From the IMG/VR virus record IMGVR_UViG_3300010885_087985: a DNA stretch of 64,000 bases, one strand, 5' to 3'. Shown here one piece after another: positions 1 to 63,337 of the stretch. The stretch's first letter is position 1, and the number at the start of each line of letters is the position of its first letter. This DNA comes from an uncultured virus (IMG/VR IMGVR_UViG_3300010885_087985). Its lineage: Duplodnaviria; Heunggongvirae; Uroviricota; Caudoviricetes. Below the pieces are notes generated by a model. It saw nothing but the letters and a program-made list of their open reading frames with translations. It had not been told where the DNA came from and ran no database searches. The position numbers and the translations under genes were made by a program.

Positions 1-972
1 ATTAGGCATTGTATTAAAGAAATTTATCCACCGAATCATATTACGATAGAATTGGCGGAACTTCTTGGAATTTTGGTTGGAGATGGGTCGATAGGAGTAA
101 AGTCTGCTGAAAATATGTTAACCATTGCTGTTGGTAAAAAACACAGGACATATGCAGAACATGTTGTAGATTTATTTAAAAAGGTATTTGGAGTTGTTGC
201 AGAGATTTACGAAAAGCCAAATTGTTTCACTGTAACATTATGTTCAAAAAACGCAGTTGATTTTGTTGATTCGATTGGTTTAAAGAAAGGTAAAACATTT
301 AAAGAAAAAATAATTCCAGATATTATTTGTAAGTCTCCTCCTGCCTATAGATGTGCTTTTCTTCGTGGTTTGTTCGATACTGATGGATATGTAACTAACC
401 ATGTTGGTTTTAGTTGTTACAATAAAAAATTAGCAGATGATGTTCAGATTATGCTTTCGGAAATGGGAATTCTTTCTAATTTAAAAACATTAAAAAATGG
501 TAAGGGCAAAAAAGGTGATCAAAAATATATTAATGTTGTTAAAATTCAAGGAATTTGGGCTGAAAATAAATTTTACAATAGAATAGGTTTTGTATTTGAA
601 TATAAGCAAGAATCACTTAAAAAACTACTTGATAGAAAATTTTGTCGTGGTTCTGGAATAGAGTTACCATACATTCAACGACAATTGATTATGTGGGCAA
701 AAGATATTGGTATCACAACATATAAAAACCATAGTCTTGGCTATTCTATTAAAAAGTTTGAGAAAAAAAATGTCGGGATTAATTCTTGTTCGTCATTTGT
801 ACAGAGAGCAGAAGAACAAGGATTAATTGTTCCAAATTATATTAAAGATATTATTTCAAATCCTTTATTTGTTGTTGATAGTGTTACCGAAGGAGACGAG
901 ATCGAAACCGTTGATATTGCACTGGATCATGATGCTCATGATTTTATTGCGTATGGATTGATCACACACAAT
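1..972 (+). mobile_element. Intein 1 of SpoVR (C-terminal part) with LAGLIDADG endonuclease
   Basis: LLGILVGDG and FLRGLFDTDG motifs; ends TVDIAL..HDFIAYGLITHN followed by +1 Thr. Confidence 0.9.
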
Positions 973-3480
973 ACAAATCCTTGTTATATTTACTGCTTGA
1001 GTAGCAACACTCTTTTGGACCATTTGACTGTTATTGCACATGCCACAGGGCATAATGACTTTTTTAAGAACAATATACATTTTAGTGCCACAGATACAAA
1101 TATGCTTAATAAAATGGCAAACCATGGCACAAGAATTAGAAATTATATGTCTCGTTGGGGAAAAGAAAGAGTCATAGAGTTTCTTGATTGGGTTATGAGA
1201 CTGGAAACTTTAATTGACGGAGCAGAAGCATGGTCTGATAAAATTTCAAAGAATGTTATCGTGCAAGACGAAAGAGTTTATAGACAACCAAGAAGGCTCA
1301 CAGTCAATAAAGAAAGAATGTATATGGAGCCTTTTATAAACACACAAGAATTTCGCCAAAAAGAGAATGAAAAAATTCATCAAGAAGACATTGAAGAAGA
1401 AATAGGTATTTTTAAGGAGCCAACAAAAAATATTTTGGGATTTTTAAGGGATAACGCACCGCTCAAACCATGGCAAGCTGATATTATCTCTATGCTTTAT
1501 GACGAGGCAATGTATTTTTTCCCACAAAGACAAACTAAGACCTTAAACGAAGGATGGGCTTGCGGGAAAAAGGACACTCTTGTTTGTAGCAATTTTGGTA
1601 TTTTGACTTTGGGAGAAATAGTTGAAAATAGAATGCAAGTCACCATTTACGATGGAGAGAAAGAAAGAAAAGTTACGAATTGGTTCACTTTTGAAAATCG
1701 AGATGTGTATCGTATAGAAACTCGTCGTGGATATGTTTTTGAGGGATCTAATAACCATCGTATTATGGGCAGGTATGATTGGATTCGTATGGACGAAATG
1801 TCCGTTGGACAGGTATTGGAGTTGTCTTTTTCCGATATCTGGCAGAATGACTTGCAAGAGGTTAAGTACGAGGTACCAGAAAAAAGAATTGAACTTAATG
1901 AACTTGCCGAAATGGCATCTGTTTCAAAATATAAAGTGATTTATAGGAAATATCAATACAAAGGTGAAGAAAAAAATGATTCTTTAGGAACTTTGATTAA
2001 AGAATATGACAATCAAAAAACTACTTTTATGAGAAACAAGAGGAACATTATTAGTGTTCCTGAATATATGAATGAAGACTTTGCTTCATTTATTGGATAC
2101 ATGATTGGTGATGGTCATATTTCTTTAGTTAAAAGAACTATGGGTTTAACATCTGGAGATAAAGAGCAAATTGATCATTACGCTACTTTGCTGAGTACCC
2201 TATTTGGATTAGAATGTAAGGTAAAATGGGATGGATCATCAAAAAATGGTAGATATAGGGCTGCTGTATACTCTAAAGATTTGGAAGAACTCCTTGTTCA
2301 TCTTGGTATGAAAACAGGGGTTTGTGCTAGACTTAAAAACATACCAGAAATTATATTGAAATCACCAAAAAGTGTGGTTGCGGCATTCATCCGATCTTAT
2401 TTTGATTGCGATGGTTATGCGGGGACTGCAGGGGTAATACTCTCCACATCAAGCGAAAGCATGTCCAGACAAATTCAGAATGTGCTTTTGAATTTTAAGA
2501 TTCTCTCTACAAGAAGAAAACAAAAGGATTCATGTTGGCATATTCGGATGACCGGCTCAGAAGCTGTTAAATACGAAGAACAAATTGGATTTGGTTTACA
2601 AAGAAAAAAAGACAAATTAAGGAAATACATCTCTAGTCACAAATGGTTTGTGAAACAAAAACTTGAAAATAAAATTGTTTCTGTCGAAAAAATTGGAAAA
2701 GATACAGTTTATGATATTACGGTAGAAACAAGCAATATGTATTCAGCTTGTGGATTCATAAATCATAATAGCACAACAGACTCAGTAATCATGGCAGAAC
2801 AGGGGTTTGCTTCTCTTGGGCAAAAAAGTCATGATTGTGGAATTGTAGAATATTCTGAGCATAAAATGGGCGTTTTAGGTGGTAAGTATTCTATGAATCC
2901 TTATAAACTTGGGTATTATTTATTATCCGATATTCGTGATAGATGGGATAAAGGGAGATTTGGCTCTGAATGGGACGAATGCACTAATATTCATCAAAAA
3001 GAATCTTGGGATGTTAAAACTAATTTAGGAAAAGAGAAAATATTTGAGGTAAGAAAGTATTATGATGATTTAACATTTATACATGAATTCTTCACAGAAG
3101 ATTTTTGCAGAACACAAGAATATTTTTATTGGACTCACTATCCTAATGGTGAGTTTCGTTTAGAAAGTAGAGATTATAAGAAAATAAAAAGTCTTTTAAT
3201 GAAAAGGCACTTAAATGGAGGTCAGCCAGAAATAAAGCTCACAGAGCCCAATTATAGGGGTAAAGGGGGCATGATGTTGCAGCATCAGTTTGATGGACGA
3301 ACTTTATACGAGCCTTACGTATCAGACGTTTTAGTGGCTTTAAGAGCTATTTGGGGAAATGATGTTTATTTGTCAACGCAAGACAAAGATGGTAATGAAA
3401 AGGTCTATTGCTGTTATGGCACTGATCCAATAAAAGATATTGAAGTTGTAAGCAGAGAAGAGCACACAAAAAATGGCTAA
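1..3480 (+). CDS. spoVR: SpoVR family protein interrupted by two inteins (5' truncated; frame open from base 1)
   Basis: Extein motifs TNPCYIYCLSSN..VIAHATGHNDFFKNN, PLKPWQADII, QTKTLNEGWA|S, NPYKLG, GKEKIFEVRKYYDDLTFI are typical of SpoVR/YcgB. Confidence 0.9.
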   Translation: MRHCIKEIYPPNHITIELAELLGILVGDGSIGVKSAENMLTIAVGKKHRTYAEHVVDLFKKVFGVVAEIYEKPNCFTVTLCSKNAVDFVDSIGLKKGKTFKEKIIPDIICKSPPAYRCAFLRGLFDTDGYVTNHVGFSCYNKKLADDVQIMLSEMGILSNLKTLKNGKGKKGDQKYINVVKIQGIWAENKFYNRIGFVFEYKQESLKKLLDRKFCRGSGIELPYIQRQLIMWAKDIGITTYKNHSLGYSIKKFEKKNVGINSCSSFVQRAEEQGLIVPNYIKDIISNPLFVVDSVTEGDEIETVDIALDHDAHDFIAYGLITHNTNPCYIYCLSSNTLLDHLTVIAHATGHNDFFKNNIHFSATDTNMLNKMANHGTRIRNYMSRWGKERVIEFLDWVMRLETLIDGAEAWSDKISKNVIVQDERVYRQPRRLTVNKERMYMEPFINTQEFRQKENEKIHQEDIEEEIGIFKEPTKNILGFLRDNAPLKPWQADIISMLYDEAMYFFPQRQTKTLNEGWACGKKDTLVCSNFGILTLGEIVENRMQVTIYDGEKERKVTNWFTFENRDVYRIETRRGYVFEGSNNHRIMGRYDWIRMDEMSVGQVLELSFSDIWQNDLQEVKYEVPEKRIELNELAEMASVSKYKVIYRKYQYKGEEKNDSLGTLIKEYDNQKTTFMRNKRNIISVPEYMNEDFASFIGYMIGDGHISLVKRTMGLTSGDKEQIDHYATLLSTLFGLECKVKWDGSSKNGRYRAAVYSKDLEELLVHLGMKTGVCARLKNIPEIILKSPKSVVAAFIRSYFDCDGYAGTAGVILSTSSESMSRQIQNVLLNFKILSTRRKQKDSCWHIRMTGSEAVKYEEQIGFGLQRKKDKLRKYISSHKWFVKQKLENKIVSVEKIGKDTVYDITVETSNMYSACGFINHNSTTDSVIMAEQGFASLGQKSHDCGIVEYSEHKMGVLGGKYSMNPYKLGYYLLSDIRDRWDKGRFGSEWDECTNIHQKESWDVKTNLGKEKIFEVRKYYDDLTFIHEFFTEDFCRTQEYFYWTHYPNGEFRLESRDYKKIKSLLMKRHLNGGQPEIKLTEPNYRGKGGMMLQHQFDGRTLYEPYVSDVLVALRAIWGNDVYLSTQDKDGNEKVYCCYGTDPIKDIEVVSREEHTKNG
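1561..2769 (+). mobile_element. Intein 2 of SpoVR with LAGLIDADG endonuclease
   Basis: Starts at Cys after NEGWA; block B GSNNH; FIGYMIGDG and FIRSYFDCDG; ends VYDITV..FINHN followed by +1 Ser. Confidence 0.92.
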
Positions 3481-6575: not shown

Positions 6576-7982
6576 ATGAAAACTTGTGATATCGTAGGCT
6601 TTGAACATCTCCATCTTCATACAGATTTTAGTCTTTTAGATGGCTTCGGTTTAACAGAGGAATATGCCCAAAGGGCACCTCAAATTAATCAGAAATTTCT
6701 TACTGTGAGCGATCACGGTATGCTTGGTGCTGTACCAAGACAAATAAAAGCATGTGAAAGAATAAATGAAAAGAAAGGCAAAGACACTTTATCCCCTATA
6801 TTTGCCGCCGAACTTTATATTAATCGCCTTCAGCCAGAATCAAATGGACTAGCAGACGTTCAAAAGTTTATTCTGGATCTCAATGAAGAAGAGAAGAGTG
6901 AAATAAAAGCCAGTCCGCATCTTTTAGCAATTGCATATAACGATATTGGATATAAAAACCTTGTTAGACTTACTAGTTGGGGTTGGACTAAAGGCTTTTA
7001 TAGAAAGCCAAGAGTTAATTATGAACAGCTTATAAAACATAAAGAAGGCTTATTCTTCACTAGTTGCTGCTATAGTAGCGAAGTAGGCAGAGCTTTTGAT
7101 AAAGGCGGTGAAGAAGCAGCTTGTGCCGTTATTGAACGATATGTAGAAATGGTTGGTAAAGACCATTACTTCTTGGAATTAATGCTTTTAGATTTTAAGA
7201 AGCAAAAGCCTTATGATGCTTTTATAATTAAGGCACATGAAAAGTACGGATTGCCACTCATTTTGTCTAACGACTGTCATTATTGCAATCAGGAAGACAG
7301 TAAGTTTCAAAGACTTATGTTGATGGTTCAGACCAATAGAACTGTTCAAGAAATACAAAAGGCGATAGAAGCCGATGAGGCACAAGACTTTTTTGAGTTA
7401 CAGGATGCTAGTTTATGGATGAAAAGCGAAGAAGAATTAAATAAAAAATGGTTAGACCAATATTCGGACACGATACCATATGAATTATTTTGTGAAGCTA
7501 AAAGGAATACAGTAAAAATTTGTGAAAGAGCAAAAGGTGTTCAGCTAGATAGAAGTTTAAAGCTTCCCATACTTCCTGACGCAGATGAATCTCTTAAAGA
7601 AGAAGTAATGAAAGGATTTGCTTTTAGAAATCTTCCAAAAAATAAAGAATATTTAGAAAGAATAAAAGAAGAATATTCCCTTATAACAAGAAAGGGTTTT
7701 TCTAGTTATTTTTTGATTCAAAAAATGATGACAGACGAGGCACGAAGGATTTGCCCTAGTTTGTTAGGGTGGGGCGATGGCAGTCAAGCCGTTGGCCCCG
7801 GGCGGGGGTCGGCTGCTGGAGCTTTGACTTGTTATTGTTTAGGGATAACTAATGTAGATCCAGTGGCAGAAGGACTTTTGTTTAGTCGTTTTATGAGTGA
7901 AGCAAGAGGAGGAAGATCTATATCTTTAGAATTTAAGAATATTGATCCATTACCTGTTAGTGAAGTTTTTGATGGAAATTAA
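6576..7982 (+). CDS. dnaE: DNA polymerase III alpha, N-terminal half (PHP domain plus start of palm)
   Basis: HLHLHTDFSLLDG, SDHG, NDCHY, GFSSYFLI, VGPGRGSAAG, LLFSRF; stops just before PDID. Confidence 0.92.
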   Translation: MKTCDIVGFEHLHLHTDFSLLDGFGLTEEYAQRAPQINQKFLTVSDHGMLGAVPRQIKACERINEKKGKDTLSPIFAAELYINRLQPESNGLADVQKFILDLNEEEKSEIKASPHLLAIAYNDIGYKNLVRLTSWGWTKGFYRKPRVNYEQLIKHKEGLFFTSCCYSSEVGRAFDKGGEEAACAVIERYVEMVGKDHYFLELMLLDFKKQKPYDAFIIKAHEKYGLPLILSNDCHYCNQEDSKFQRLMLMVQTNRTVQEIQKAIEADEAQDFFELQDASLWMKSEEELNKKWLDQYSDTIPYELFCEAKRNTVKICERAKGVQLDRSLKLPILPDADESLKEEVMKGFAFRNLPKNKEYLERIKEEYSLITRKGFSSYFLIQKMMTDEARRICPSLLGWGDGSQAVGPGRGSAAGALTCYCLGITNVDPVAEGLLFSRFMSEARGGRSISLEFKNIDPLPVSEVFDGN

Positions 7983-8697
7983 CAAAATTTATAACGAAGA
8001 TTGTTTGGAAACTATGTCTAGAATGCCGGATGGCTTTGTAGACTTATCTTTAACATCTCCTCCGTATAATATGAACCTAAGGATCAGGAATGGTTCTTAT
8101 TGTTCAAGACAAATTATAAAAGAAGAGTTCAGCACGAAGTATTCTGAGTTTTCTGATAATGTGCCAATAGAAGACTTTTACTCTAATCACAAAGCTATTT
8201 TGTCGGATCTTATTAGAGTTTCTAAAATAACCTTTTATAATATATCAATTGTTACTGGGTCAAAACGTGCTTTTTTCAAAATGATTGGTGATTTTTCTGA
8301 AAATATAAAAGATATCATAATATGGGATAAATGCCATGCACAGCCATCTATGCATCATAGCGTTTTAAACCGCCAGCATGAAATAATACTAGTTTTAGAG
8401 AAAAAAGAAAATTCAATATCTAGAGCTTTTGAAAAGTGCAATTTCCCCAGAGGCGAACTTAATGATATTTGGCAAATTAAAAGGCAAAAAACAACAGCAA
8501 AAGGACATGGTGCAGCATTTCCAGAAGACCTTGTAAACAAGATTTTAGAAAACTTTAGCAATGAAAACGATTTGATTTATGACCCTTTTGCAGGAACTGG
8601 AACCGTTGCGAAATGTTGTAAAAATTTAAATAGAAAGTGGATATCTTCAGAAATTAGTGATACATACTGTAAAATGTTAAAAAAAAGACTTAATTAG
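7972..8697 (+). CDS. DNA methyltransferase (N4-C/N6-A, beta class)
   Basis: NEDCL, TSPPYN, H.A.FP, DPFAGTGT motifs. Confidence 0.9.
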   Translation: MEINKIYNEDCLETMSRMPDGFVDLSLTSPPYNMNLRIRNGSYCSRQIIKEEFSTKYSEFSDNVPIEDFYSNHKAILSDLIRVSKITFYNISIVTGSKRAFFKMIGDFSENIKDIIIWDKCHAQPSMHHSVLNRQHEIILVLEKKENSISRAFEKCNFPRGELNDIWQIKRQKTTAKGHGAAFPEDLVNKILENFSNENDLIYDPFAGTGTVAKCCKNLNRKWISSEISDTYCKMLKKRLN

Positions 8698-8749: not shown

Positions 8750-9652
8750 ATGAAATATAAAACCTTCCAAGAGTATATTGATACCAATAAAAAATTGGTT
8801 GTTAAGCCAAAAGTTGAGAAGGTAGCAGATTATTCAGGCGATGTAGTCCGTAAGCCTGAAAAAGAGAAAATGCACAAGCACGCTGGTGGAAAAGGACCAG
8901 TCGGAGAACCTGCTTCATATATTTCAGGAACGAATGGTCAAAACCCTAACAAAGATGATCCAAAAGCTTTAGGACATAAGGGAATGAAAAACCTACAAAA
9001 GAAAAGCGTTAGCGAGTGGATTAATGAAACAAAAAACTTGTCCATGGCAGAATTTACAAAAGATCTAACAAAGAATGAATGCAGATGTCAAATACATGAT
9101 CTTGCAAAAGATGTTATTGAATCTTGTAAGTGTAATAAGGAAAACGTATCAACATTGGTCAGAGCTGTTAAACGAAGCAAAATTTTTGAATCATTTTTGC
9201 TAGAGATGTTGAGCCACGACGAAGCATTAAAGATATTAGCAAAAATAGCAGTAACAAATGAGCATTATTCAAAAAAATTGTTAAATACAATTAATGAAAT
9301 GGTTGCTACTCCGATTGGGTTTGGACCAGACGTAGAAGGGGATGAGTCAGAATATGACTCGGAGAATGAACCTGAAGAAGACTCTGAGGAAGGCTCTGAG
9401 GAAGACTCTGAGGAAGGCTCCGAAGACGCTGAATATGATTCTGAAGAAGGCTCTGAAGAAGACTCTGAGGAAGGCTCCGAAGACGCTGAATACGATGCTG
9501 AGGAAGACGCCGAAGAAGACGCTGAAGAAGAAGACGAAGGCGAAGAAGGCGATGACTCAGGAAAAACCTACCATCACCACCACCATCATCACCACCATCA
9601 TCATAACAAAAATAAAATAGATGGAAATTTTGATTCCAGTGTGCTTCAGTAA
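8750..9652 (+). CDS. hypothetical protein with acidic repeat and His11 tract
   Basis: RBS AGGAGA; N-terminus MKYKTFQEYI; (EEDSEEGS)n; 11 His. Confidence 0.75.
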   Translation: MKYKTFQEYIDTNKKLVVKPKVEKVADYSGDVVRKPEKEKMHKHAGGKGPVGEPASYISGTNGQNPNKDDPKALGHKGMKNLQKKSVSEWINETKNLSMAEFTKDLTKNECRCQIHDLAKDVIESCKCNKENVSTLVRAVKRSKIFESFLLEMLSHDEALKILAKIAVTNEHYSKKLLNTINEMVATPIGFGPDVEGDESEYDSENEPEEDSEEGSEEDSEEGSEDAEYDSEEGSEEDSEEGSEDAEYDAEEDAEEDAEEEDEGEEGDDSGKTYHHHHHHHHHHHNKNKIDGNFDSSVLQ

Positions 9653-9765: not shown

Positions 9766-12700
9766 ATGAATAATCCTATTAAAGAAAAAATACTTGATAT
9801 TTGCAAGAAAAATCTTATAGAAAAAGGTTTGTTTAATGATGCTCGTTATCAAAAAAGATTAAAGTGGGAAATAGAGGAAATAGAAGCGAAAAATAAAATT
9901 GATTATTTTTATAATTTATATGAGAAAAATATAAGATACGCTGTTAATCAGAATAACCTTTTAATTTGCTGGCTATTAGGAGTTGTATCCGAACATTCAA
10001 TAGAATTGGATCCAACGTGTACATATGGAGATTTTCCTGATATAGACTCGGATTATATCCAGCAGGTAAGAAATTATATTAAAGAAAGTTGGGCACCAAA
10101 AACTTTTGGAGAAGAATATGTTTGCAATATTGGAAATTATACTACATTTGGAATCAAGTCTGCTTTAATTGATATGGTTCGTGTTTATGGTAAAAGTAGA
10201 GATGAAATTCTTGGATTAACAAAAAGTTTAGATGCAAAAGACGACGAAGGCAAAGATATGACATGGGACGCAGCAATGAAGCTGTATCCTGATTTAAAAA
10301 AATACTGCTCGGACAACAAAGATATAGCAGAATCTGCTAAGAAACTACTGCATAGAAACAGAGGCATGGGAGTTCATGCAGGTGGTCTTATCATTTCAAG
10401 TACACCTTTATCTGACTTAGTACCGCTTGTTAAAAGGAAAGACAGCCCACAAGCGTCTTCTTGGGTAGAAGGTCTTCATGGGCAAGATTTGCAACCTGTT
10501 GGTCTTGTAAAGTTTGATCTATTGGTTGTTTCTAACTTATTACAAGTTGCACTTTGTTGTGAATTGGTTAAGTCCAGACACAATTTAGAAAGTATATGTG
10601 CATTAAAAGGTAGGTCAGATTGGAGTGATGTTGCTGCTTGGAGAAATGATCCTCTTAGCATTAGCATGGCAAATATAGGCGATCTTAAAGGCATATTTCA
10701 ATTTGACAGTGAAACAGTCAGGAACATGTGCCGAACAGGAGGTGTGGATAATTTTGAAGATTTAGTTGCCTATACGAGCCTTAACAGACCTTCCGCATTA
10801 AACATGAAAATGCAGGAAAGGTATATAGAAAGAAAAAAGAAGAGAGAAGATTATCAACTGCACCCATTAATGCAGCCGATATTAGGCGAAACTTATGGCG
10901 TGATGATTTATCAAGAACAAGTAATGAGAGTGCTTAATGTTGTTGGTAACATACCGCTAAAAGATTGCGAGTTAGTAAGAAAAGCAATATCAAAAAAGAA
11001 GGTAGAGAGTTTTATAAAGTATAAAGAGGCTTTTTTAATAAATGGTAAAAAGAATCTTGGAATAAGTGAAGAAGCAATAAACCATCTGTATCAGCAAGTT
11101 GAAGCTTTTTCTGAATATGGATTTAATAAATCTGTGCACCAAGATACATATATACCTACGCCTAAAGGACTTAAGAAAATTTGTGATTTTCAAAAAGGCG
11201 ATAAGGTTTATTGCATAGATGAACAAGGGAACAAAGCAGAAACTTTTGTAGTTAATTTACATGATCACGGAATATTAGAAGGACACAAGGTTGTTTTTGA
11301 TGATGGGTATGAAATAATTTGTACCATAGATCATAAATTTTTAACCGAGGATGGACAAATTTCGCTTCGTGAAATACTGGCTAAAGATGTTTCTATATTT
11401 TGTGAAAAAGAATACGGAGAAAAATATGCCAGCAAAAAAAGAATCAAAAGCTCGTTGCGGAGAAATATTTCCATCAAAGTCGTTGATGCTGAAGCACCAG
11501 TCAGCTTGTCGAGAGTGTCGAAGGTTGGGCTGGGGCGGCGGAAAGACTTTCAAATCTCGATGTCAAATAGAATTTCAAAGAATGATTCCGAGAGACAAGC
11601 ATCTAAAAACTTGCGAAGATTGCGAAAGAATAAAACGAGAAAATATAAAAGCAAAGAATTTAAAGACAAATCGCTCGGAAGGTCATCGGAGAGCCTCTTC
11701 TGTTTCTGCAAGAAAAACATCTGCCCGCCCAGAGATACAAGCACAAAGAGCAGAACGATTGAAAAAGTGGAGAGAAGAAAACCCAGAAAAATTTGCAAAA
11801 TGCACAGAAGCTGCATGGAAAAGTCCAAAACGATCAAAAATGGAAGCTTGGTTGCGTGCCCAGTTAAAATGGGGAACCAAGAAAATTCGTTGTGGGAAAA
11901 GGTCGGATCGAAAGTGGAAGCAGGTAGATATGACGAAAGGAAAAATTTGGATAGAAGTAGACGGATTTTATCATTTTTACGAGCATCAAAGCAACAAACC
12001 AATAAATTTTCGGTTGCCGATTGTTCAACAGCGAGATGCCATGTTGAACGAAGAGTGTTTAAGAAGAAAAGATGTGATGTTAATAAGAGTGGGCATGTCA
12101 TGCTTCCACAGCAGCACGGGAAGAATGGCGTTGGATTGGTGGGAAGTATTTCAGAACATGCTTCAATCTCCAATACCGGGAGTCTGGTGTCTAGGAAAAT
12201 TTTACGAGTCTTGCCCATGGGCAGGCATCAAATGTACGATCTTGAAGTTTCCAATCGAACACACAACTTTATTTTGCCCAACGGAATAGTAACGAGCAAC
12301 AGTCATGCTGTTGCATATACATATATTTCTTCTTATCTTCTTTACTTGAAATCTCACTATCCAAATGAATTTTACACTAGTATCTTAAGGTGCGAAAAAT
12401 CAAGTGAAAAAATAAAAGAATACAAAATGGAAGCAAAAGGGCATGGTGTGCAAGTCTGTGGTTTGAATATAAATAGGTCAAAAATAAGTTTTGATTTGCA
12501 AGAAGACATTATATACTTTGGTTTTTCTAACATTAAAGGTATTGGTGAAGCTCCCGCCACAAGAATTATAGAGTGTCAACCGTATAAAGATTTTGAAGAC
12601 TTTCTTGAAAGGTTCGGAACAGAGGCAAATGTTTTAAAGCCATTGATAGGATTGCGATGCTTTACTGAAAGTGACCCTGTAACGCTTTGGAGGTTTGCAG

Positions 12701-13713
12701 AAAAATATAAAAATTATTTCAAGAAAAAAGAAGAAAAGCAAAAAAGACATATAGCGACTATGCTAAAATATGACAATGAGTTTAAATCTTTATTTCCAAA
12801 TGAAACAACTAACCTATCTGATATAAAAAGCACCAACCCTTATAAATTGGACTATTGGAAGAAGTATGATGTCGAAGAGGTTCGTTATGTTGAAGGTAGC
12901 ATTAAATGCGAAAAAGATGAAGACGGTGCAATTGCAAAGCTAACCAATGGCACAGTTACTTTAGATTGTGGCGTTACTATAGAAAAAGAAATTGTTGTAT
13001 ACTACAAAAAAGTTAAGAATAAGAAAAGCTTTAACCCTCTTAATTCTTTTAAAAAGTTGTGGGACAAAAGAAATAGATCAATAGAAAAAAATAAAAATAA
13101 TGAAAAAAACTCACCAAAACTCGGTGATTTTAATGATTTAGATGCCAAATTAGATGCCGAAACAGAGGAGGAAATATCAAATTACATAGCATGTGAGAGG
13201 AAGTATTATGGGTTTTCCTTGGCACATCCATTAGAATTCAGCCCAGATCATAACGTTAAATTAACATTTAATAACTTAAGAGATTATTCTACAGTAACAA
13301 ATAACTCGGAAAAAGGGTCACCAAGTGCCTCAGTTGGACCAGTTGAGGTGTGTGTTATTAAGACCAATAAGACTAAAAGTAAGAAAGGAACAGTATACTA
13401 TCATTTGACCGCAGAGGATATTACAGGACAAGAAAACAAAATAATTATTTGGCAAGATGATTGGGAAAGATGGAAAGAAGAATTTTTAGTAGGTAACTTA
13501 CTTAGATTGAGGCTACAGGCACCTTCAAATGGGTTTTTTACTTTTTCGTTAGAAAGCAACCAACATAAGCCTAACCGTCGTGGTAAAAATACATCTGATA
13601 AAAAAGATGATTTTAGAGTTGCTATAATGAAAAAAGGAGTAATAGATAATACAATTACACAAGAAGACTGTCTTATGCAATTTGAAAAATGTACAATGAA
13701 AAAACAACAATAG
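9766..13713 (+). CDS. dnaE: DNA polymerase III alpha, C-terminal half (palm, fingers, HhH, OB), with intein
   Basis: FPDIDSD, GVHAGG, GLVKFDLL, GIFQF, YQEQVM, YGFNK|SHAVAY, IKGIG. Confidence 0.92.
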   Translation: MNNPIKEKILDICKKNLIEKGLFNDARYQKRLKWEIEEIEAKNKIDYFYNLYEKNIRYAVNQNNLLICWLLGVVSEHSIELDPTCTYGDFPDIDSDYIQQVRNYIKESWAPKTFGEEYVCNIGNYTTFGIKSALIDMVRVYGKSRDEILGLTKSLDAKDDEGKDMTWDAAMKLYPDLKKYCSDNKDIAESAKKLLHRNRGMGVHAGGLIISSTPLSDLVPLVKRKDSPQASSWVEGLHGQDLQPVGLVKFDLLVVSNLLQVALCCELVKSRHNLESICALKGRSDWSDVAAWRNDPLSISMANIGDLKGIFQFDSETVRNMCRTGGVDNFEDLVAYTSLNRPSALNMKMQERYIERKKKREDYQLHPLMQPILGETYGVMIYQEQVMRVLNVVGNIPLKDCELVRKAISKKKVESFIKYKEAFLINGKKNLGISEEAINHLYQQVEAFSEYGFNKSVHQDTYIPTPKGLKKICDFQKGDKVYCIDEQGNKAETFVVNLHDHGILEGHKVVFDDGYEIICTIDHKFLTEDGQISLREILAKDVSIFCEKEYGEKYASKKRIKSSLRRNISIKVVDAEAPVSLSRVSKVGLGRRKDFQISMSNRISKNDSERQASKNLRRLRKNKTRKYKSKEFKDKSLGRSSESLFCFCKKNICPPRDTSTKSRTIEKVERRKPRKICKMHRSCMEKSKTIKNGSLVACPVKMGNQENSLWEKVGSKVEAGRYDERKNLDRSRRILSFLRASKQQTNKFSVADCSTARCHVERRVFKKKRCDVNKSGHVMLPQQHGKNGVGLVGSISEHASISNTGSLVSRKILRVLPMGRHQMYDLEVSNRTHNFILPNGIVTSNSHAVAYTYISSYLLYLKSHYPNEFYTSILRCEKSSEKIKEYKMEAKGHGVQVCGLNINRSKISFDLQEDIIYFGFSNIKGIGEAPATRIIECQPYKDFEDFLERFGTEANVLKPLIGLRCFTESDPVTLWRFAEKYKNYFKKKEEKQKRHIATMLKYDNEFKSLFPNETTNLSDIKSTNPYKLDYWKKYDVEEVRYVEGSIKCEKDEDGAIAKLTNGTVTLDCGVTIEKEIVVYYKKVKNKKSFNPLNSFKKLWDKRNRSIEKNKNNEKNSPKLGDFNDLDAKLDAETEEEISNYIACERKYYGFSLAHPLEFSPDHNVKLTFNNLRDYSTVTNNSEKGSPSASVGPVEVCVIKTNKTKSKKGTVYYHLTAEDITGQENKIIIWQDDWERWKEEFLVGNLLRLRLQAPSNGFFTFSLESNQHKPNRRGKNTSDKKDDFRVAIMKKGVIDNTITQEDCLMQFEKCTMKKQQ
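11131..12300 (+). mobile_element. 390-aa intein in DnaE (Ser1 ... Ser-Asn, +1 Ser)
   Basis: Interrupts FNK|SH; block A SVHQDTYIPT, block B CTIDHKFL, block F MYDLEV, block G HNFILPNGIVTSN. Confidence 0.92.
11426..12289 (+). CDS. Vsr/DUF559-like (PD-(D/E)XK) putative homing endonuclease overprinted in the +1 frame of the DnaE intein
   Basis: GGAGA 5 nt before ATG; CxxC pairs and basic helical region; SKME..VD..IWIEVDGFYHF..QQRD..LIRV. Confidence 0.8.
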   Translation: MPAKKESKARCGEIFPSKSLMLKHQSACRECRRLGWGGGKTFKSRCQIEFQRMIPRDKHLKTCEDCERIKRENIKAKNLKTNRSEGHRRASSVSARKTSARPEIQAQRAERLKKWREENPEKFAKCTEAAWKSPKRSKMEAWLRAQLKWGTKKIRCGKRSDRKWKQVDMTKGKIWIEVDGFYHFYEHQSNKPINFRLPIVQQRDAMLNEECLRRKDVMLIRVGMSCFHSSTGRMALDWWEVFQNMLQSPIPGVWCLGKFYESCPWAGIKCTILKFPIEHTTLFCPTE

Positions 13714-23790: not shown

Positions 23791-25407
23791 ATGCCATCTG
23801 TAGCTGAATTTCTTATTGAAAGATTAGGCAATTCTGGGATTAAACACATTTTTGGTGTGCCAGGAGATTATCTATCAGAATTCATAGGGAATCTTTCACA
23901 GAATGAAAAGATAAAATTTGTTAGCAATACAGATGAGAATCATGCAGGATTCGCAGCAGATGCGTATGCAAGAGCCAATGGCATAGGATGTGTTTGTGCT
24001 ACTTATAGCGTTGGAGCACTAAAGCTATGCAATTCTATCGCAGGAGCGTACGCAGAAAAATCTCCTGTTGTTGTTATAAGCGGTTCACCAGGAATTAAAG
24101 AGAGAAATGAAGATTTAATGTTGCATCATGTTTTAGAAAGTTTTGACAATCAACATAAAATATTTTCTCACATAACATGTTGCAGCGTTGTTTTAGATAA
24201 CTCAACAACTGCTGGTTGGAAAATAGACAATGCACTAGAAATGCTCAGACACAACAAGCAGCCTATTTATATTGAGCTTCCTCGTGATGTAGCCTCGCAA
24301 CCAATTAAGTACGATGTTTATACACAAGGTACTCCTGTAGAGCAAAAAAGCGATCCAGAAAGCCTTAAAGAGGCTATGGATGAAACAATTAATTGGATTA
24401 AAAATTCAAAAACACCAGTAATAATTGCAGGTGTTCAAATAACTAGATTTGGTTTAGATGAAAGTCTAGTAAGGTTTGCAGAAAAGAACAATATACCCAT
24501 AGTAACAACTCTATTGAGTAAATCTTCAATAAATGAAAATCATGAACTTTTTGCTGGTGTGTACTGTGGCAACCAGACAAGCCAAGAATGTGTTAGAAAG
24601 CTTGTTGACGACTCTGATTGTTTGCTTGTTTTAGGGGAAATGTTAACAGAAATGCTATCTGGTTTTCAAACTCCTAAATTTACAAAACAACAAACTATAT
24701 TTTGTTCTACAGAAGGATTGAAGATAAAAAATCATATTTATAATGGTGTAAAATTCACTGATTTCTGTAAAGATCTTTTTAAAATTGATCTTGGTAAGAA
24801 AGAAAAAATAACTTTAGAAAAGAAAGAATCAAAAGTTTTTACACCAGTTAATGGTGCATTAATAACTGTGGATAGATTTTTTGAAAAAATAAATAATATT
24901 TTAAATGAAAAAATGGCAGTGGTTGCAGATATTGGTGAGAGTTTGTTTGGAGCAACAAGGCTAAACGTGCACCACCACCAGTTCATAAGCCCTGCATTTT
25001 ATTGCAGTATGGGTTTGGCTATTCCTGGTGCGTTAGGATTTCAAATGGCTAAACCTAATATTCGCCCTATTGTTTTAGTTGGAGATGGGGCGTTCCAAAT
25101 GTCCGTATCAGAAATTAGTACTATTTTACAGCATAAATTAAACCCAATAATATTTGTTTTGAATAATAAAGGATACGCAACAGAAAAAAATATTTTAAAT
25201 ATTTTTATTAGAGACTGGAGTTACCATAAGGTTTCTGATATGATGGGCGGCGGATTTGGATATAAGGTTGAAACTGAAGACCAATTAGAAGAATCTATTT
25301 CTTTATCTTTAAAAAACAAAGTGTTATCTGTAATAAACGTTTGTTTAGACCCAGTTAGCGTTTCGCTAGGTCTTAAAAGCGTAATAAATTCCACCACGAT
25401 CAGGTAA
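23791..25407 (+). CDS. ThDP-dependent 2-oxoacid decarboxylase (indolepyruvate/pyruvate decarboxylase family)
   Basis: FGVPGDY, E..AGFAADAYAR, LHH, GDGAFQM...NNKGY. Confidence 0.9.
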   Translation: MPSVAEFLIERLGNSGIKHIFGVPGDYLSEFIGNLSQNEKIKFVSNTDENHAGFAADAYARANGIGCVCATYSVGALKLCNSIAGAYAEKSPVVVISGSPGIKERNEDLMLHHVLESFDNQHKIFSHITCCSVVLDNSTTAGWKIDNALEMLRHNKQPIYIELPRDVASQPIKYDVYTQGTPVEQKSDPESLKEAMDETINWIKNSKTPVIIAGVQITRFGLDESLVRFAEKNNIPIVTTLLSKSSINENHELFAGVYCGNQTSQECVRKLVDDSDCLLVLGEMLTEMLSGFQTPKFTKQQTIFCSTEGLKIKNHIYNGVKFTDFCKDLFKIDLGKKEKITLEKKESKVFTPVNGALITVDRFFEKINNILNEKMAVVADIGESLFGATRLNVHHHQFISPAFYCSMGLAIPGALGFQMAKPNIRPIVLVGDGAFQMSVSEISTILQHKLNPIIFVLNNKGYATEKNILNIFIRDWSYHKVSDMMGGGFGYKVETEDQLEESISLSLKNKVLSVINVCLDPVSVSLGLKSVINSTTIR

Positions 25408-25410
25408 AAA

Positions 25411-25947
25411 ATGGATGAAAGTAAAGATGTTTTTCGTATAAATTGGCAAATTAAGGCACCACAAGTTCGTGTGATAGTTGAAGAAAAGCAACTTGGGGTG
25501 ATGGGGTTAGAAAAAGCAATAAAGATCGCACAAGATTGTGGAATGGATCTTGTAGAGATTGCGGCAAATGTTACGCCGCCGGTTTGCAGAGTTGTAAATC
25601 ACGGTAGATTTAAGTATGAACAACAAATCAAAAAAAAAGAACACCACAAAAAACAAAGAGAGTCTCAGGTACAGCTTAAAGAATTAAGACTAAGACCTTC
25701 TATAGAAAAACACGATATTGATGTTAAAACAGCTCGGGCTAAAAGATTTCTAGAAGAAGGAATGAAGGTTAATTTAATTCTTATTTTTAAAGGGCAACGT
25801 GAACTTTCTCACAAAGAAAAAGGTTTTGATGTTATTACTAAAATGATTGAAAACCTTGCTCCTTTTTCTGTTCTAGAGAAGGCACCAAAGTTAGATGGAA
25901 ATAGAATTTTTTGTTGTCTGTCTCCAAAAGAACTGCGGAAAGCTTAG
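25411..25947 (+). CDS. infC: translation initiation factor IF-3
   Basis: IN.QI.APQVRVI, DLVEIA..PPVCR, LKELRLRP.I..HD..VK. Confidence 0.93.
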   Translation: MDESKDVFRINWQIKAPQVRVIVEEKQLGVMGLEKAIKIAQDCGMDLVEIAANVTPPVCRVVNHGRFKYEQQIKKKEHHKKQRESQVQLKELRLRPSIEKHDIDVKTARAKRFLEEGMKVNLILIFKGQRELSHKEKGFDVITKMIENLAPFSVLEKAPKLDGNRIFCCLSPKELRKA

Positions 25948-25950
25948 AAA

Positions 25951-26682
25951 ATGATTCATTCTGTTAAAGAAGAATGCTTAGAATCAGGCATGAAATCTAG
26001 AAAGTTAAAGAAAATACAAATTATAGATTTGTATTTTTTAAGAAGAAATATAGAACAATGGGAAAGCCAACCAAATTGTTTCTGGAGTTTTTTAAGATTT
26101 AATGAATTATATAAAAAAGATATAGAGTCTGCGAATGAAAAAATACATAAATATGAAGATATGGGATGCTATTTCTTATCTGAAGAGATTAAATCTTACG
26201 TACTTTTTTTAGAAGAATCAAATGCAATGTATTATGGATTTCATTCGATTGGTATTGCAGCAAGTGCCATTATATTGGCAAAAATGTTACGTTATAAAAT
26301 AAATAAAAATAAAATATTAAATGATATTAACTCTTTTGGACAAGGACAGAGTGTAGAGTACGAGCCAAGAGTATACCCTCTACATCATTTTTTGGAAATA
26401 GCTTCGGAATCAACAAAAAAAATAGTTAAAACACTAGAGCGTTTTCCAGAAGATAATTACAATTCTATATTTGATAATTTTTGTATAGTTGTTCCTGGAT
26501 TTAAAGTTTTTTCAGGAGAAAACGAATATTATTTTATAGGGAAAAATGGAGAAAGAAATAGCTATAACTCTGTTGAAGAAGCGTCCAAAGCATTAGATTT
26601 TTTTCTCATTGGAAACAATTATATGAGTGCAGTTCTTCTTGGAGAAAAAGATGAAAAATGTTACTTTATAAACTACTTTTAA
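25951..26682 (+). CDS. hypothetical protein
   Basis: ORF within an operon-like array. Confidence 0.65.
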   Translation: MIHSVKEECLESGMKSRKLKKIQIIDLYFLRRNIEQWESQPNCFWSFLRFNELYKKDIESANEKIHKYEDMGCYFLSEEIKSYVLFLEESNAMYYGFHSIGIAASAIILAKMLRYKINKNKILNDINSFGQGQSVEYEPRVYPLHHFLEIASESTKKIVKTLERFPEDNYNSIFDNFCIVVPGFKVFSGENEYYFIGKNGERNSYNSVEEASKALDFFLIGNNYMSAVLLGEKDEKCYFINYF

Positions 26683-26700
26683 ACACACTCCTTACCAAAA

Positions 26701-28203
26701 ATGGAAAACTTTATGAAAAACTTAAATTTTATCAATGGTAAATTCCAAGCAGAAGATTCTAGTTCTTTTTTTAATTCATACGATCCATCAACAGAAGATA
26801 TTATAGGTTCTTTTCCTGATTCTTCTGCCAATGATATAAACTTAGCAATCCAAACAGCTAAAAAATCTTTTGAATCGTGGAGTCAAATTAGTAGGGTAAA
26901 GAGAGCAGAATATTTTTGGAATCTGTGCAGAGTTTTGGAACAAATGGAAGAAGATGTAACCAAAACTATTTCTTTAGAAACAGGTAAAAGTCTTAATGAA
27001 AGTAAAGCTGAAGTTATTGAAGCTTTGCATATGTCTCAATATTGTTTTGGCAAAGGACGCGAAAGCTGTGGTGATATTGTATCATCAGAGCTTTCTGAGC
27101 GGGATTCATACATTATTCGGAAACCAAAAGGAGTTGTTGCTGTTATAGCACCTTGGAACTTTCCTTTTGCAATTGGTGGATTTTGGTGTGCTGGTCCTTC
27201 CATACTAGAAGGAAATACTGTTGTTTTTAAACCAAGCGAATTAACTCCACTGGTTGGTCAAAAAACAGCAGAGATATATGAGAAGGCAGGCTTCCCATCG
27301 GGTGTTTTTAATATGATCCATGGCGATGGAAATGTTGGTAGCAAAATTGTTAAAAATAATGATGTAAATCATATTTGTTTTACGGGCAGTGCGGACGTAG
27401 GAATGCTCATAAGAATGAACTGTGCAGAGAGTTGGAATAAAACATGTAGCTGCGAGATGGGCAGCAAATCTGCCGTGATGGTATTTGACGATTGCGATAT
27501 TGATTTAGCAGTATCTGCTTGCATTAATAGTGCTTTCAAATTAAGCGGTCAGCGATGTGTTTCTGCTGGACGATTACTAATTCATAGATCAGTAATGAAG
27601 AAGTTTAAAGAGAGATTTTTATATGAAGTTGGAATCGCTAATGTTAAAAATCCATTTGATAAAAGCGTAGGAGTTTGCTCCGTTGAATTTGGACCTCTAA
27701 TTAGCAAAGATCAGATGGAACGTGTGCAGAGATTTAATGAGTTGGTTCGCAAAGATAAAGATGCAACTGTTTTGTATGATGAGCCTATATTACAAGAACT
27801 TTTGACAAAAGGCTGGTTTTTACGACCTTTTGTTTACGAGGTCGAATGGTCTGATAAAGAATATTTAAAGCAAGAAGTATTTGGACCGCATGTAGCTATT
27901 ATACCTTTTGATACTATTGAAGATGCAATAAGGATTTATAACGATACAGATTTTGGTTTGTCATTGGGAGTTATTACGAATGATTTTCGTAATATGAGAA
28001 AAATAAGAAACTTATGCGATGCAGGTATGATTTATTTTAATTTGGGCTCAATAGGAGCTGAATCACATCTGCCTTTTGGAGGTATTAAGAAGTCGGGTAA
28101 CGGTTGGCCATCAGCAGCAGGAATGTTTGATGCTGTCGTACATAAAGTCGCAGTGTCAGTGAATCATTCTGTAACTTTAAATTTTCCACAAGGACTAAAA
28201 TAA
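26701..28203 (+). CDS. aldehyde dehydrogenase
   Basis: PWNFP, KPSE, FTGS, EMGSK, GQRC, EVFGP, PFGG.K.SG. Confidence 0.95.
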   Translation: MENFMKNLNFINGKFQAEDSSSFFNSYDPSTEDIIGSFPDSSANDINLAIQTAKKSFESWSQISRVKRAEYFWNLCRVLEQMEEDVTKTISLETGKSLNESKAEVIEALHMSQYCFGKGRESCGDIVSSELSERDSYIIRKPKGVVAVIAPWNFPFAIGGFWCAGPSILEGNTVVFKPSELTPLVGQKTAEIYEKAGFPSGVFNMIHGDGNVGSKIVKNNDVNHICFTGSADVGMLIRMNCAESWNKTCSCEMGSKSAVMVFDDCDIDLAVSACINSAFKLSGQRCVSAGRLLIHRSVMKKFKERFLYEVGIANVKNPFDKSVGVCSVEFGPLISKDQMERVQRFNELVRKDKDATVLYDEPILQELLTKGWFLRPFVYEVEWSDKEYLKQEVFGPHVAIIPFDTIEDAIRIYNDTDFGLSLGVITNDFRNMRKIRNLCDAGMIYFNLGSIGAESHLPFGGIKKSGNGWPSAAGMFDAVVHKVAVSVNHSVTLNFPQGLK

Positions 28204-29054: not shown

Positions 29055-30083
29055 ATGGACCCATATAAAATACTTGGACTTGATAAATCGTCTACGATTA
29101 ATGATATTAACAAAGCATATCGGGAGTGTGCAAAAAAGTACCATCCTGATGTGAACAGAGACAATCCGGAAGCAGCCAATACCTTTAAGGAAATACAAAA
29201 ATCCTATGAAATTCTAAGCGATACAAGAAAAAGACAGTCTTACGACAGTGGAGGCATGAATTTTAGAAGCAGACAAGTTCATAATTCAGGCTTTGAATTT
29301 TCAATGGATGAAATTTTTTCTAATAGTGTTTTTAGAGGAAAAAATTTACAAGAAAAGATAGAGATAGATTTGGTTGATGTTTTAAATGGATGCGAAAAAG
29401 AAATTACATTCAAAAAAAGCAACCGATGTAAAACATGTTCTGGCAATGGCTTTTCTGAGTTTTTAAAATGTGAGCAATGCAACGGCAACGGTTTTGTTCA
29501 GGTGTCTGAAGCACCTTTTGTACTTCGACAATCTTGTGGGCATTGTTCTGGTATAGGTAAAATTAATACTAAAAAGTGTGATACTTGTAAAGGAAAAGGA
29601 TCTGAATCGTTTGAAGAAAAAACAGTGAAATGTAAAATTCCGCCTGGAATAGAACATATGGCACAAATTGTTTTTTCTGGGGAAGGCGATGAATCCTTGA
29701 GAGGTGGTAGAAATGGAGACTTGTTAGTTTTTATTTCTATAAGAGAAAGCCCTATATTTAAAAGAGAGGGTCCGAATATTTTCATAGAGATACCGGTATC
29801 TTATAGTCAGTTAGCATTGGGCGGAGACATTATTACCCCCTGTGTTTCTAATGAAAAAGTTTTGATAAAAGTTCCAGCAGGATGTCAAGCACATACTAGA
29901 TTTAGAGTAAAAGGAAAAGGCATGCCATCAAGAGGAAGCATAGGAGATATGGTTGTTACTTTAAAGTTAGAAACACCAAGAGAAATAAACGAAGAATATA
30001 AGGCTACTTTGTTAAAGTTGGCAGAATTAGAAAAACAAAATGTTACTCCAAATATAAAAAATTGGAACGAAACAATCCATTGA
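29055..30083 (+). CDS. dnaJ: chaperone DnaJ
   Basis: J-domain HPD, four CxxCxGxG repeats, C-terminal domain. Confidence 0.95.
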   Translation: MDPYKILGLDKSSTINDINKAYRECAKKYHPDVNRDNPEAANTFKEIQKSYEILSDTRKRQSYDSGGMNFRSRQVHNSGFEFSMDEIFSNSVFRGKNLQEKIEIDLVDVLNGCEKEITFKKSNRCKTCSGNGFSEFLKCEQCNGNGFVQVSEAPFVLRQSCGHCSGIGKINTKKCDTCKGKGSESFEEKTVKCKIPPGIEHMAQIVFSGEGDESLRGGRNGDLLVFISIRESPIFKREGPNIFIEIPVSYSQLALGGDIITPCVSNEKVLIKVPAGCQAHTRFRVKGKGMPSRGSIGDMVVTLKLETPREINEEYKATLLKLAELEKQNVTPNIKNWNETIH

Positions 30084-62080: not shown

Positions 62081-63337
62081 ATGAACAGAAACAATTTATG
62101 TTGCGATTTTTGTGGTCAATCAAATAAGTTGGTTGGCAATTTAATAGAATCGCCTAATATCACGGAAGAGACTAATGGAAGAAAAAAGGGCACAAGCTTT
62201 TTCATTTGCCACGGGTGCGTGGAGCTTGTTTCCACTATGTGCAAGTCAGGTAAAAAATATAAAAAAGAAAAGAGCAAATACACGCTTGATATTCCAAATC
62301 CTAAACATGTAATTGAGTACATGAACCAATATATTGTTGGTCAAGAAACAGCAAAAAAAACTTTGGCTGTTGCTGTTTGCAACCATTACAAAAGAATATT
62401 CGCTCCTAGCATAAGCAAAGCTATGAACGAAACCACTATTGAAAAATCTAATGTTCTTTTGGTTGGACCAACTGGTTCTGGAAAGACTTTATTTGCAAAA
62501 ACACTTGCACAATATTTGGATGTCCCGTTTGCGATAGGGGACGCAACCACTCTCACCGAGGCAGGATACGTTGGCGAAGACGTAGAAAACTTAATCTTAA
62601 AGCTTTTGAATAATGCTGATTTTGATGTAGAGGCGGCAGAAAATGGCATCATTTATATTGATGAAATAGATAAAATCGGCAGAACGAACCAAAATGTTTC
62701 GATCACTAGAGATGTGTCAGGTGAAGGTGTGCAACAATCTCTTTTAAAGATTATTGAAGGCACTATTTGCAATGTACCTCCAGCAGGAGGTAGGAAGCAT
62801 CCAGAACAGCAGTTTATCCAAGTAGATACCACCAATATTCTTTTCATATGTGGCGGCACGTTTGTTGGTCTAGATAAGATTATTAATCGTAGATTGTGTA
62901 AGAAATCAATTGGATTTAATCCAATAGAGTCTAAAGAGTGGACAGAAGAAAACTTAATAGAAGAGGATCTTGTTCAGTATGGTTTAATTCCAGAGCTAAT
63001 CGGTCGCCTTCCTTGTGTCGCTCCACTGAAAAAGTTTGATGTGGAATCTTTAGTTTCTGTTTTATCTGAACCTAAAAACTCCATTATTAAACAATATCAA
63101 AAATTATTTTTGTGTGACAAAGTCAAACTAGAATTCACAAAAGAAGCTTTGCTTTTAATTGCTAAAAAAGCAATTGATAAAAATACGGGAGCTAGAGGAC
63201 TTCGGAGTATGATAGAAAAAATTCTTTTGGAAATAATGATAGAATCCGCAGATAATCCAAACGCAACGGTTACTGTTACCGATAAAATCGTCTCTGGCGA
63301 AGAAAAGCCTACTTTTAAAAAAAATAAAGCAGCGTGA
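62081..63337 (+). CDS. clpX: ATP-dependent Clp protease ATP-binding subunit ClpX
   Basis: C4 Zn finger, [40 protein letters not shown]. Confidence 0.96.

Follow-up and report, generated by a model that had tools for sequence, protein, structure and literature searches.

The locus described here lies in a 64,000-nt stretch of DNA from an uncultured virus of the class Caudoviricetes (IMG/VR virus record IMGVR_UViG_3300010885_087985), referred to below, at its full length, as the window. The window holds dnaE (9766..13713, + strand), which encodes the C-terminal two-thirds of the alpha subunit of DNA polymerase III, as judged from the list of open reading frames (ORFs) and from Pfam matches to DNA_pol3_alpha, DNA_pol3_finger and HHH_6. 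The gene is interrupted at the site GFNK/SH by a 390-aa intein in the dnaE frame (11131..12300, +). Within the DNA of the intein, a second gene (11426..12289, +) is read in the +1 frame and encodes a 287-aa protein with the characteristics of a homing endonuclease. In all likelihood, the locus is a contiguous, cis-splicing DnaE intein in which a free-standing gene for a Vsr-like (EDxHD) endonuclease is nested on the same strand, in the +1 frame. This layout had been proposed by a model given only the letters and the ORF list (the sequence-only reading), and its claims were followed up by searches of sequence and structure, by comparison with related loci and by analysis of codon use.

The intein and its overlapping gene

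The boundaries of the insert are those of an intein. Its first residue, Ser1, is encoded by the TCT at 11131 and its last, Asn390, by the AAC ending at 12300, after which the extein resumes with Ser-His. The same boundaries were found in 13 aligned relatives, and intein-less alleles of the site occur. Block B (CTIDH) occupies intein residues 65-69, and block G with the junction (VTSN/SH) lies at 12289-12306. Across 14 aligned inteins H68, S389 and N390 were invariant, as was the pattern DLEV..HN..G..SN of the C-terminal splicing domain. The Pfam family Intein_splicing (PF14890) gave a split match over residues 16-389 (E 2.8e-8), and Pfam identified no LAGLIDADG or HNH domain in the host-frame intein, in keeping with the description of its middle in the sequence-only reading. 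The first residue is Ser in the window and Thr (FNK/T...) in many relatives (L003, L005, L011, L016 and others); Thr at this position is unusual among inteins.

An AlphaFold2 (AF2) model of the host-frame intein, built from the 14 aligned inteins, consisted of two folded ends and an unstructured middle. The N-terminal splicing domain (blocks A and B, residues 1-100; 11131..11430, +), conserved in the intein alignment, had pLDDT scores (predicted values of the local distance difference test) of 92-97, and the C-terminal splicing domain (blocks F and G, residues 346-390; 12166..12300, +) had scores of 90-97, so that both ends were above 90. The 244 residues between them (residues 102-345; 11434..12165, +) form a basic, Ser-rich read-through linker with no stop codon and no Pfam domain; pLDDT was below 50 and secondary structure was absent, and the linker is predicted to be disordered. 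Compared with solved structures using Foldseek, the folded ends matched the Npu DnaE intein (4kl5_A; E 2.8e-7, prob 1.00, rmsd (root-mean-square deviation) 1.7 over 93 columns) and also the gp41-1 intein, with 43 matches in total at E <= 0.001. Coordinates, Pfam and fold agree with the 390-aa extent and the splicing blocks first proposed. By its sequence and its modelled fold the insert is a bona fide intein, with predicted splicing activity.

The +1 frame is open from 11351, with an ATG at 11426 and a TAG at 12287-12289. A Shine-Dalgarno (SD) sequence, GGAGA, lies at 11416-11420, 5 nt before the ATG; start, SD, stop and length are all as first reported. The 287-aa product is a conserved protein. 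It had 20 homologs in a clustered protein database (E 1e-148 to 2e-19, 34-69% identity), one of them with the source label "very-short-patch-repair endonuclease", and 155 cluster representatives at E <= 1e-3. A phage collection gave no match for the intein DNA (blastn, distant mode) or for the +1 protein (tblastn).

An AF2 model of the +1 product, based on 79 aligned sequences, reached a pLDDT of 92.5. In order, it contains two small beta-beta-alpha modules, a helical region and an alpha/beta domain at residues 135-276. The two modules (residues ~7-70; 11444..11635, +) share a repeated conserved pattern of Cys and His (RCG..x..H..C..C) and would be zinc-finger-like; Foldseek returned weak matches to C2H2 fingers (2drp_A, prob 0.89). 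The alpha/beta domain (11828..12253, +) was compared with 48,161 chains using VIA-align, a method independent of Foldseek. Vsr ranked first (1cw0_A; Z 10.5, rmsd 2.7, 116 aligned), followed by the I-Bth0305I catalytic domain (3r3p_B; Z 8.2, 90/98 aligned), with the third-ranked chain at Z 7.3. Residues D168, E177, D179, H183 and D204 were invariant in the 79 sequences. As a conserved motif, these residues fit the E-D-x-H-D signature described by Taylor et al. 2011 (PMC3239194), and the domain is assigned on fold and motif as Vsr-like/EDxHD.

Searches of both frames by profile and by fold therefore gave an intein fold in the host frame and a Vsr-like fold in the +1 frame, the latter as the sequence-only reading had proposed. 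Three findings would have spoken against that reading: a +1 product with no nuclease fold, homologs with stops in the +1 frame, and a linker matching a known endonuclease family. The product has the fold, its homologs carry the frame (two copies with premature stops are considered below) and the linker matched no such family.

Constraint on the two reading frames

Scans with the endonuclease alignment identified 20 viral, 49 metagenomic and 14 genomic loci, 83 in all, one of which (L021) is the window's own stretch. The host frame, which is one base behind the endonuclease frame, had no stop anywhere over the endonuclease gene in 75 of the 83 loci and ran into long host ORFs. After duplicates were merged, 62 of 68 distinct loci were open and 6 closed, with an identical frame offset throughout. 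In none of the loci was the third frame open across the endonuclease gene; its longest open run around the midpoint was 116 codons. The loci came from three collections and spanned 33-95% protein identity. In five of the six closed loci (L004, the L017 group, L020, L044 and L060), dnaE is a split-intein gene whose two halves flank the endonuclease gene, and the sixth (L083) is a remote free-standing homolog.

The open host frame was compared with chance by holding the +1 protein fixed and choosing its synonymous codons anew, in 20,000 draws for each of four models (codon usage of the window, usage of the gene itself, uniform usage, and permutation of the gene's own synonymous codons). Under no model did any of the 20,000 resamplings leave the dnaE frame open (mean stops expected 16.1-28.5, observed 0). 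The third sense frame over the endonuclease gene contains 36 stops. A stop in the host frame can arise only where an endonuclease codon ending in T precedes a codon starting with AA, AG or GA. Since such a stop would break the polymerase, the endonuclease gene is barred from T-ending codons in these contexts. The observed codons follow this rule: in the window's endonuclease gene T-ending codons were used at 0 of 84 positions before AA, AG or GA codons and at 50 of 162 before other codons, while the other genes of the window used them before AA, AG or GA codons in 697 of 2142 cases.

The same avoidance was found among the relatives. Pooled over loci, T-ending codons in the risky contexts numbered 0/4398 in contiguous loci and 91/383 in split (closed) loci, a contrast expected only if read-through matters. 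Each of 16 loci taken singly had no host-frame stop against 6.8-18.3 expected (P(open) <= 0.0005, 2,000 permutations each). These data support the proposal, made in the sequence-only reading for more than 250 codons of the window, that the host frame is kept stop-free by selection, and extend it to 62 of 68 distinct loci.

The frame under constraint changes along the element, as found in a codon alignment of the window with 14 relatives. Between 11471 and 12175, amino acid identity was 0.23-0.66 in the endonuclease frame and 0.12-0.38 in the host frame, and the most variable base was the third position of the endonuclease codon. From 12176 to 12220 the values were 0.55 and 0.43, and all three codon positions were constrained (0.69/0.69/0.50). 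From 12221 to 12265 they were 0.44 and 0.65, and the most variable base was the third position of the host codon. As far as conservation in the alignment indicates, the selected frame is that of the endonuclease up to ~12175 and that of the intein from ~12221, with a short dual-coded stretch between.

Because the constraint switches in this way, true dual coding would be short, at about 12166-12253 (+). There, the end of the nuclease domain (PGVWCLGKFYE... in the +1 frame), including its last strand and helix, overlies the first C-terminal splicing strands (...LVSRKILRV... in the dnaE frame), and both models are confident. It had been suggested that both frames are functional through the codons of blocks F and G. 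This appears to hold for ~12166-12253 only; over ~12221-12289 it is the intein frame that conservation tracks. The final ~12 codons of the endonuclease ORF, which overlie blocks F and G, had a pLDDT of ~50, and in several relatives the ORF ends earlier, at 'TILK*'. With the host frame dominating conservation here, these codons look like a passive tail.

Recent substitutions were examined in the nearest relative, L022, whose endonuclease is 95% identical to that of the window. In the endonuclease-only part, 25 substitutions separate the two. Of these, 12 are silent in the endonuclease frame alone and 3 in the host frame alone, while 10 change the protein in both. A 12-nt indel keeps both frames. 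The intein and endonuclease (11131..12175) differ by 2.0-3.3 substitutions per 100 nt and the dnaE exteins by 0.6-0.9. The higher divergence of the insert could reflect faster evolution, or separate histories of insert and host gene.

An antisense ORF of 222 aa (11550..12218, - strand) was also considered and is not part of the element. It has no Pfam or PHROG family, and its frame is not open in relatives: over the 250-codon intein middle the antisense frame has 1 stop in the window and 2-10 in 15 other loci (13 distinct). It is therefore regarded as a by-product of T-poor composition.

Distribution and expression signals

Most relatives have DnaE as host and interrupt the same GFNK/SH site. 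Twelve loci belong to gammaproteobacterial metagenome-assembled genomes (MAGs), labelled Beggiatoa, Thiomargarita, Thiothrix, Ca. Venteria, Methylococcaceae, Competibacteraceae and others. The unit of intein and endonuclease also occurs in proteins other than DnaE, with at least two other hosts (L007/L009, L012, L014 and L049). Matches of these hosts to PHROG families were weak where present: a sigma factor for L007 and L009 (E 3e-4 to 1e-3, the only match) and thymidylate synthase for L012 (E 6.5e-4, a single match). The L014 host had no PHROG match. An endonuclease tree was built from 61 rows, omitting L012, L013, L014, L017, L020 and L049, in which the matched stretch was shorter than 200 residues, and the remote L083. 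Three split forms nest among the contiguous ones, so that at least two changes of state are needed.

The state of the insertion site was examined in 23 viral loci with DnaE N-exteins 53-81% identical to that of the window, after five partial matches and those below 35% identity had been dropped. Eighteen of these close relatives are insert-free and read GFN(K/L/A/R)(S/A)H. In two (L085 and L086) this dnaE site is occupied by a 188-aa mini-intein, a clear homolog of the window intein (L085:3266-3829). Its +1 frame holds a 75-codon remnant in which the first ~20 and the last ~55 endonuclease codons are joined, the nuclease core having been deleted. One locus (L088) has a long homologous intein, and two (L087 and L098) have an unrelated, Cys-initiated insert at the same GFN(R/K)/SH site; in L087 the host frame stops after 106 codons. 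Patchy presence, empty sites and a decayed copy are the distribution of a homing element.

Just 5' of the endonuclease ATG, and within the translated dnaE frame, the RNA is predicted to form a hairpin (11390..11420, +) that pairs the SD (GGAGA, 11416-11420) with UUUCU at 11390-11394. Its minimum free energy is -14.7 kcal/mol (z -2.70), and 1 of 200 dinucleotide shuffles was equally stable. Within the window's clade of 23 loci, a comparable hairpin, defined as at least 3 of 4 SD bases paired and a z of -1.8 to -4.3 against mononucleotide shuffles, was found in 17, with stem sequences that vary between subclades. Of the six misses, L024 and L045 had no stable hairpin, L032 had 2 SD bases paired, L034 and L070 had mis-picked starts, and L042 had no SD-start pair that could be found. 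An automatic survey of starts and hairpins in 66 loci found the SD paired in 37 of 61, with z <= -1.64 in 23 (mononucleotide shuffles). It was unreliable beyond the window's clade, often picking an ATG inside the host 'FDDG' codons, and only the 23-locus clade was used.

A start with an SD-like motif just before the conserved N-terminal motif was found as ATG in the window, L001, L002, L003, L013 and L015, and as GTG in L012 and L014. In L001 and L002, a +1-frame stop lies directly upstream of this start. A consensus scan for promoter-like sites gave no excess over shuffles (15 versus 15.8). Since the hairpin lies inside the translated dnaE frame, ribosomes translating dnaE must melt it. The hairpin at the ribosome-binding site could thus equally couple the expression of the endonuclease and dnaE as uncouple it, the latter being what the sequence-only reading had proposed; the effect could be coupling or mere limitation.

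The surroundings of the host gene were also surveyed. The window looks like part of a large phage genome, with nearly all genes on the + strand. Its dnaE is divided between two genes, 6576..7982 and 9766..13713 (+). The first encodes a PHP domain and part of the pol III alpha NTPase (profile positions 2-98). In the second, the NTPase resumes at position 100 and is followed by the finger and HhH domains (Pfam), and the dnaE genes of L002 and L003 likewise begin near position 100. Between the two genes lie a DNA methylase gene (7942..8697) and an acidic 300-aa ORF (8750..9652, +) that contains long repeats of Asp, Glu and Ser and, close to its C-terminus, 12 consecutive His residues. A gene for a SpoVR-like protein (1..3480, +), open at the 5' end of the window, contains a second intein, in this case canonical, with an in-frame LAGLIDADG endonuclease (Pfam SpoVR, Intein_splicing, LAGLIDADG_3). 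A TPP (thiamine pyrophosphate)-dependent enzyme, an aldehyde dehydrogenase, a full DnaJ and a ClpX-like AAA+ protein are encoded at 23791..28203, 29055..30083 and 62081..63337 (+) of this phage-like window.

Interpretation and comparison with known systems

At the level of sequence, the two frames, the two folds, the avoidance of stops and the switch in constraint are solid. If the locus is a contiguous intein with a nested endonuclease gene, it may work as follows. Ribosomes translating dnaE would read through the endonuclease gene and so produce the 244-residue disordered linker in the place where canonical inteins hold an in-frame endonuclease. Once folded together, the two splicing halves would remove the insert in its entirety. 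The endonuclease would be made separately, from its own SD and ATG, located where the N-terminal splicing domain ends. Because the hairpin holds this ribosome-binding site, translation of the endonuclease is probably limited, or linked to the passage of ribosomes in the dnaE frame. The nuclease would be expected to cut intein-less dnaE at or near GFNK/SH, after which intein and endonuclease would be copied into the cut gene.

A number of observations count against this interpretation. Splicing, initiation and cleavage are predictions for every member of the family. The Pfam score of the intein, 34.1 bits, is slightly under the curated cut-off of 35.8. The 287-aa product has no Pfam or PHROG family match. 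When the PDB was searched with sequence profiles from 21 and from 79 sequences, no match was significant (best AbaSI, E 0.1; zinc-finger proteins, E 0.1-1), and Foldseek against the PDB gave the endonuclease model a weak match to Vsr (1vsr, E 0.06). As the profile searches were not significant, the Vsr-like/EDxHD assignment rests on the VIA-align fold match and the conserved motif. A clear SD and start codon are confined to the window's clade. In two of the 62 contiguous loci, both in dnaE of chromosomal type (L056:3001-3837 and L074:3001-3831), the endonuclease has a premature stop and the host frame is open, so the intein can persist without an intact endonuclease. Finally, two database proteins, P0167 (859 aa) and P0116 (779 aa), consist of the N-part of DnaE and the N-intein in frame with the endonuclease, so other expression routes may exist, or the contigs may carry indels. 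Each could be a real indel variant, in which the N-fragment of a split intein is joined to the endonuclease, or could reflect an indel introduced by sequencing. Among longer proteins an in-frame fusion of N-intein, endonuclease and C-intein was not found, only the N-terminal fusion P0167, which is weak evidence of absence.

These observations bear on the alternatives. It is unlikely that the window's endonuclease is an inactive relic, its ORF kept by inertia while the open dnaE frame is all that matters. The family does include decayed members, such as the two copies with premature stops and the two mini-inteins that have lost the nuclease core. The window copy, however, is intact and has every invariant catalytic residue, and its substitutions relative to L022 are biased towards endonuclease-synonymous sites (12 versus 3). 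Furthermore, a 287-codon ORF in a genome of 34% G+C would close without selection, the third frame here being full of stops.

Slightly less probable again, and improbable on the whole, is an endonuclease with no start of its own, made as a fusion to the N-extein and N-intein through a +1 ribosomal frameshift from the dnaE frame or in indel variants. P0167 and P0116 carry DnaE N-part, N-intein and endonuclease in one frame, and the +1 frame of the window is open for 25 codons ahead of the ATG, from 11351. Against such a fusion, an ATG or GTG with an SD-like motif stands before the conserved N-terminal motif in the window and seven other loci, and L001 and L002 have a +1-frame stop immediately 5' of the start. 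An SD-centred hairpin is, moreover, a known control element of free-standing endonuclease genes. In fractured genes, where a free-standing Vsr-like endonuclease gene lies between the halves of a split intein, hairpins related to translational control were described 5' of 15/16 endonuclease genes (Dassa et al. 2009, PMC2677866).

There is very little chance that the window itself holds a split intein, in which dnaE translation need not cross the endonuclease gene and the open frame would be functionless. True split relatives exist (L004, L017-L020, L044, L060), and in the tree they nest among contiguous forms. The window, in contrast, has neither a host-frame stop nor a start context for a C-terminal fragment, and stop avoidance, complete in contiguous loci, is loosened in split ones. 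A sequencing or assembly frameshift disguising a normal in-frame endonuclease domain, for which nothing specific speaks beyond the frequency of single-base indels in metagenome assemblies, is already refuted by the comparative data, since two compensating indels would be needed, 62 distinct loci, drawn from three collections and with protein identities of 33-95%, have the identical offset, and the host frame is stop-free over 244 codons, unlike an accidental frame.

Beyond the nested gene itself, a broader proposal can be made, though with some reserve, as it is rather doubtful as a whole. The overprinted state would be long-lived and predominant, not a rare passing accident, and maintained by the codon rule; it would be the pool from which split and mini forms arise repeatedly, and the hairpin would gate endonuclease synthesis. 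Overprinting would have persisted while the endonuclease diverged to ~33% identity, in phages and in gammaproteobacterial chromosomes. The dnaE ribosomes could open the hairpin, and so bring about a cross-frame translational coupling of the selfish gene with the host gene.

The layout had been presented in the sequence-only reading as unprecedented, which does not stand: out-of-frame intein endonucleases have been described (10.1101/2025.01.02.630785), and the same family is found in fractured genes (Dassa et al. 2009, PMC2677866). The comparisons that follow refer to the accessible parts of the cited papers. Fractured genes share with the present element the Vsr-like endonuclease family, with three motifs that include the E..D..H and D residues, and kinds of host that include phage DnaE. 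They also share a hairpin 5' of the endonuclease start and an endonuclease 3' end that overlaps the coding region of the C-terminal intein half (PMC2677866). Among the present loci, L004, the L017 group, L020, L044 and L060 have exactly the fractured layout. The window differs in that dnaE is not broken into two ORFs and its host frame is stop-free through the insert. The 3' overlap is also longer, 124 nt (12166-12289) against 6-69 bp in fractured genes. The model of Dassa et al., in that part of the paper, provides for 'fracture' or 'in-frame insertion' only and does not mention the contiguous out-of-frame state of the window.

The 2025 preprint (10.1101/2025.01.02.630785) describes non-canonical inteins of actinobacteriophages of three types: antisense LAGLIDADG, antisense VSR-like, and a same-strand 'frame 3' endonuclease VII-like type. 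As in the window, these are full, contiguous inteins with a foldless in-frame middle, the endonuclease coming from another reading of the same DNA. A free-standing endonuclease gene invading an intein is the proposed origin, and annotation pipelines are likely to miss such genes. In contrast to these types, the window has a VSR-like (EDxHD) gene on the sense strand, in the +1 frame. Second ORFs in the preprint typically lie outside the splicing domain, whereas the window ORF enters blocks F and G. The integrations are called 'extremely rare' there; in the window's lineage the overprinted state is the majority one (62/68 distinct), occurs in bacterial chromosomes as well, and shares clades with split forms.

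Two other systems are similar in part. I-Bth0305I (Taylor et al. 2011, PMC3239194; PDB 3R3P) has a C-terminal Vsr-like catalytic domain with conserved E, D, H and D, an N-terminal DNA-binding region of repeated small modules and a similar size (266 aa versus 287 aa here). It differs in lying in a group I intron of phage recA, and the N-terminal modules of the window endonuclease are, by contrast, zinc-finger-like; profile searches of the PDB gave no significant sequence-level match between the two proteins. The element described in PMC11855218 is likewise an insertion that is stop-free in the host frame, with a homing endonuclease read in another frame, starting a few bases inside the insert and stopping at its very end. 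That element is described as having no splicing domain and an endonuclease of HNH type, whereas the insert in the window is a bona fide intein by its sequence and model.

The window therefore belongs to a kind already described, that of out-of-frame intein endonucleases. What sets it apart is a sense-strand, +1-frame VSR-like gene, its overlap with the C-terminal splicing blocks, and its place as the predominant state of a large and old lineage. In a search of the literature, no description was found of a Vsr-like endonuclease read out of frame on the sense strand of a contiguous intein, although the supplementary tables of the preprint might list one.

For protein-splicing tools, the family offers natural pairs of closely related contiguous and split inteins with a Ser nucleophile. 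It is also of interest that a disordered insert of 244 residues is apparently tolerated at the endonuclease insertion site. For annotation, inteins with long 'degenerate linkers' have probably been misfiled as decaying inteins or mini-inteins, with their endonuclease genes uncalled; this would apply also to the chromosomal dnaE genes of Thiothrix, Beggiatoa, Thiomargarita and methanotroph MAGs. Host-frame read-through leaves a signature that can be recognized in sequence, the absence of T-ending codons before AA, AG and GA codons, and this signature is relaxed in split loci. The abundant overprinted state fills a gap between mini-, canonical and split inteins in the model of Dassa et al. For long evolutionary periods, it would seem, the gene that gives an intein its mobility can be a separate one, overprinted within it.

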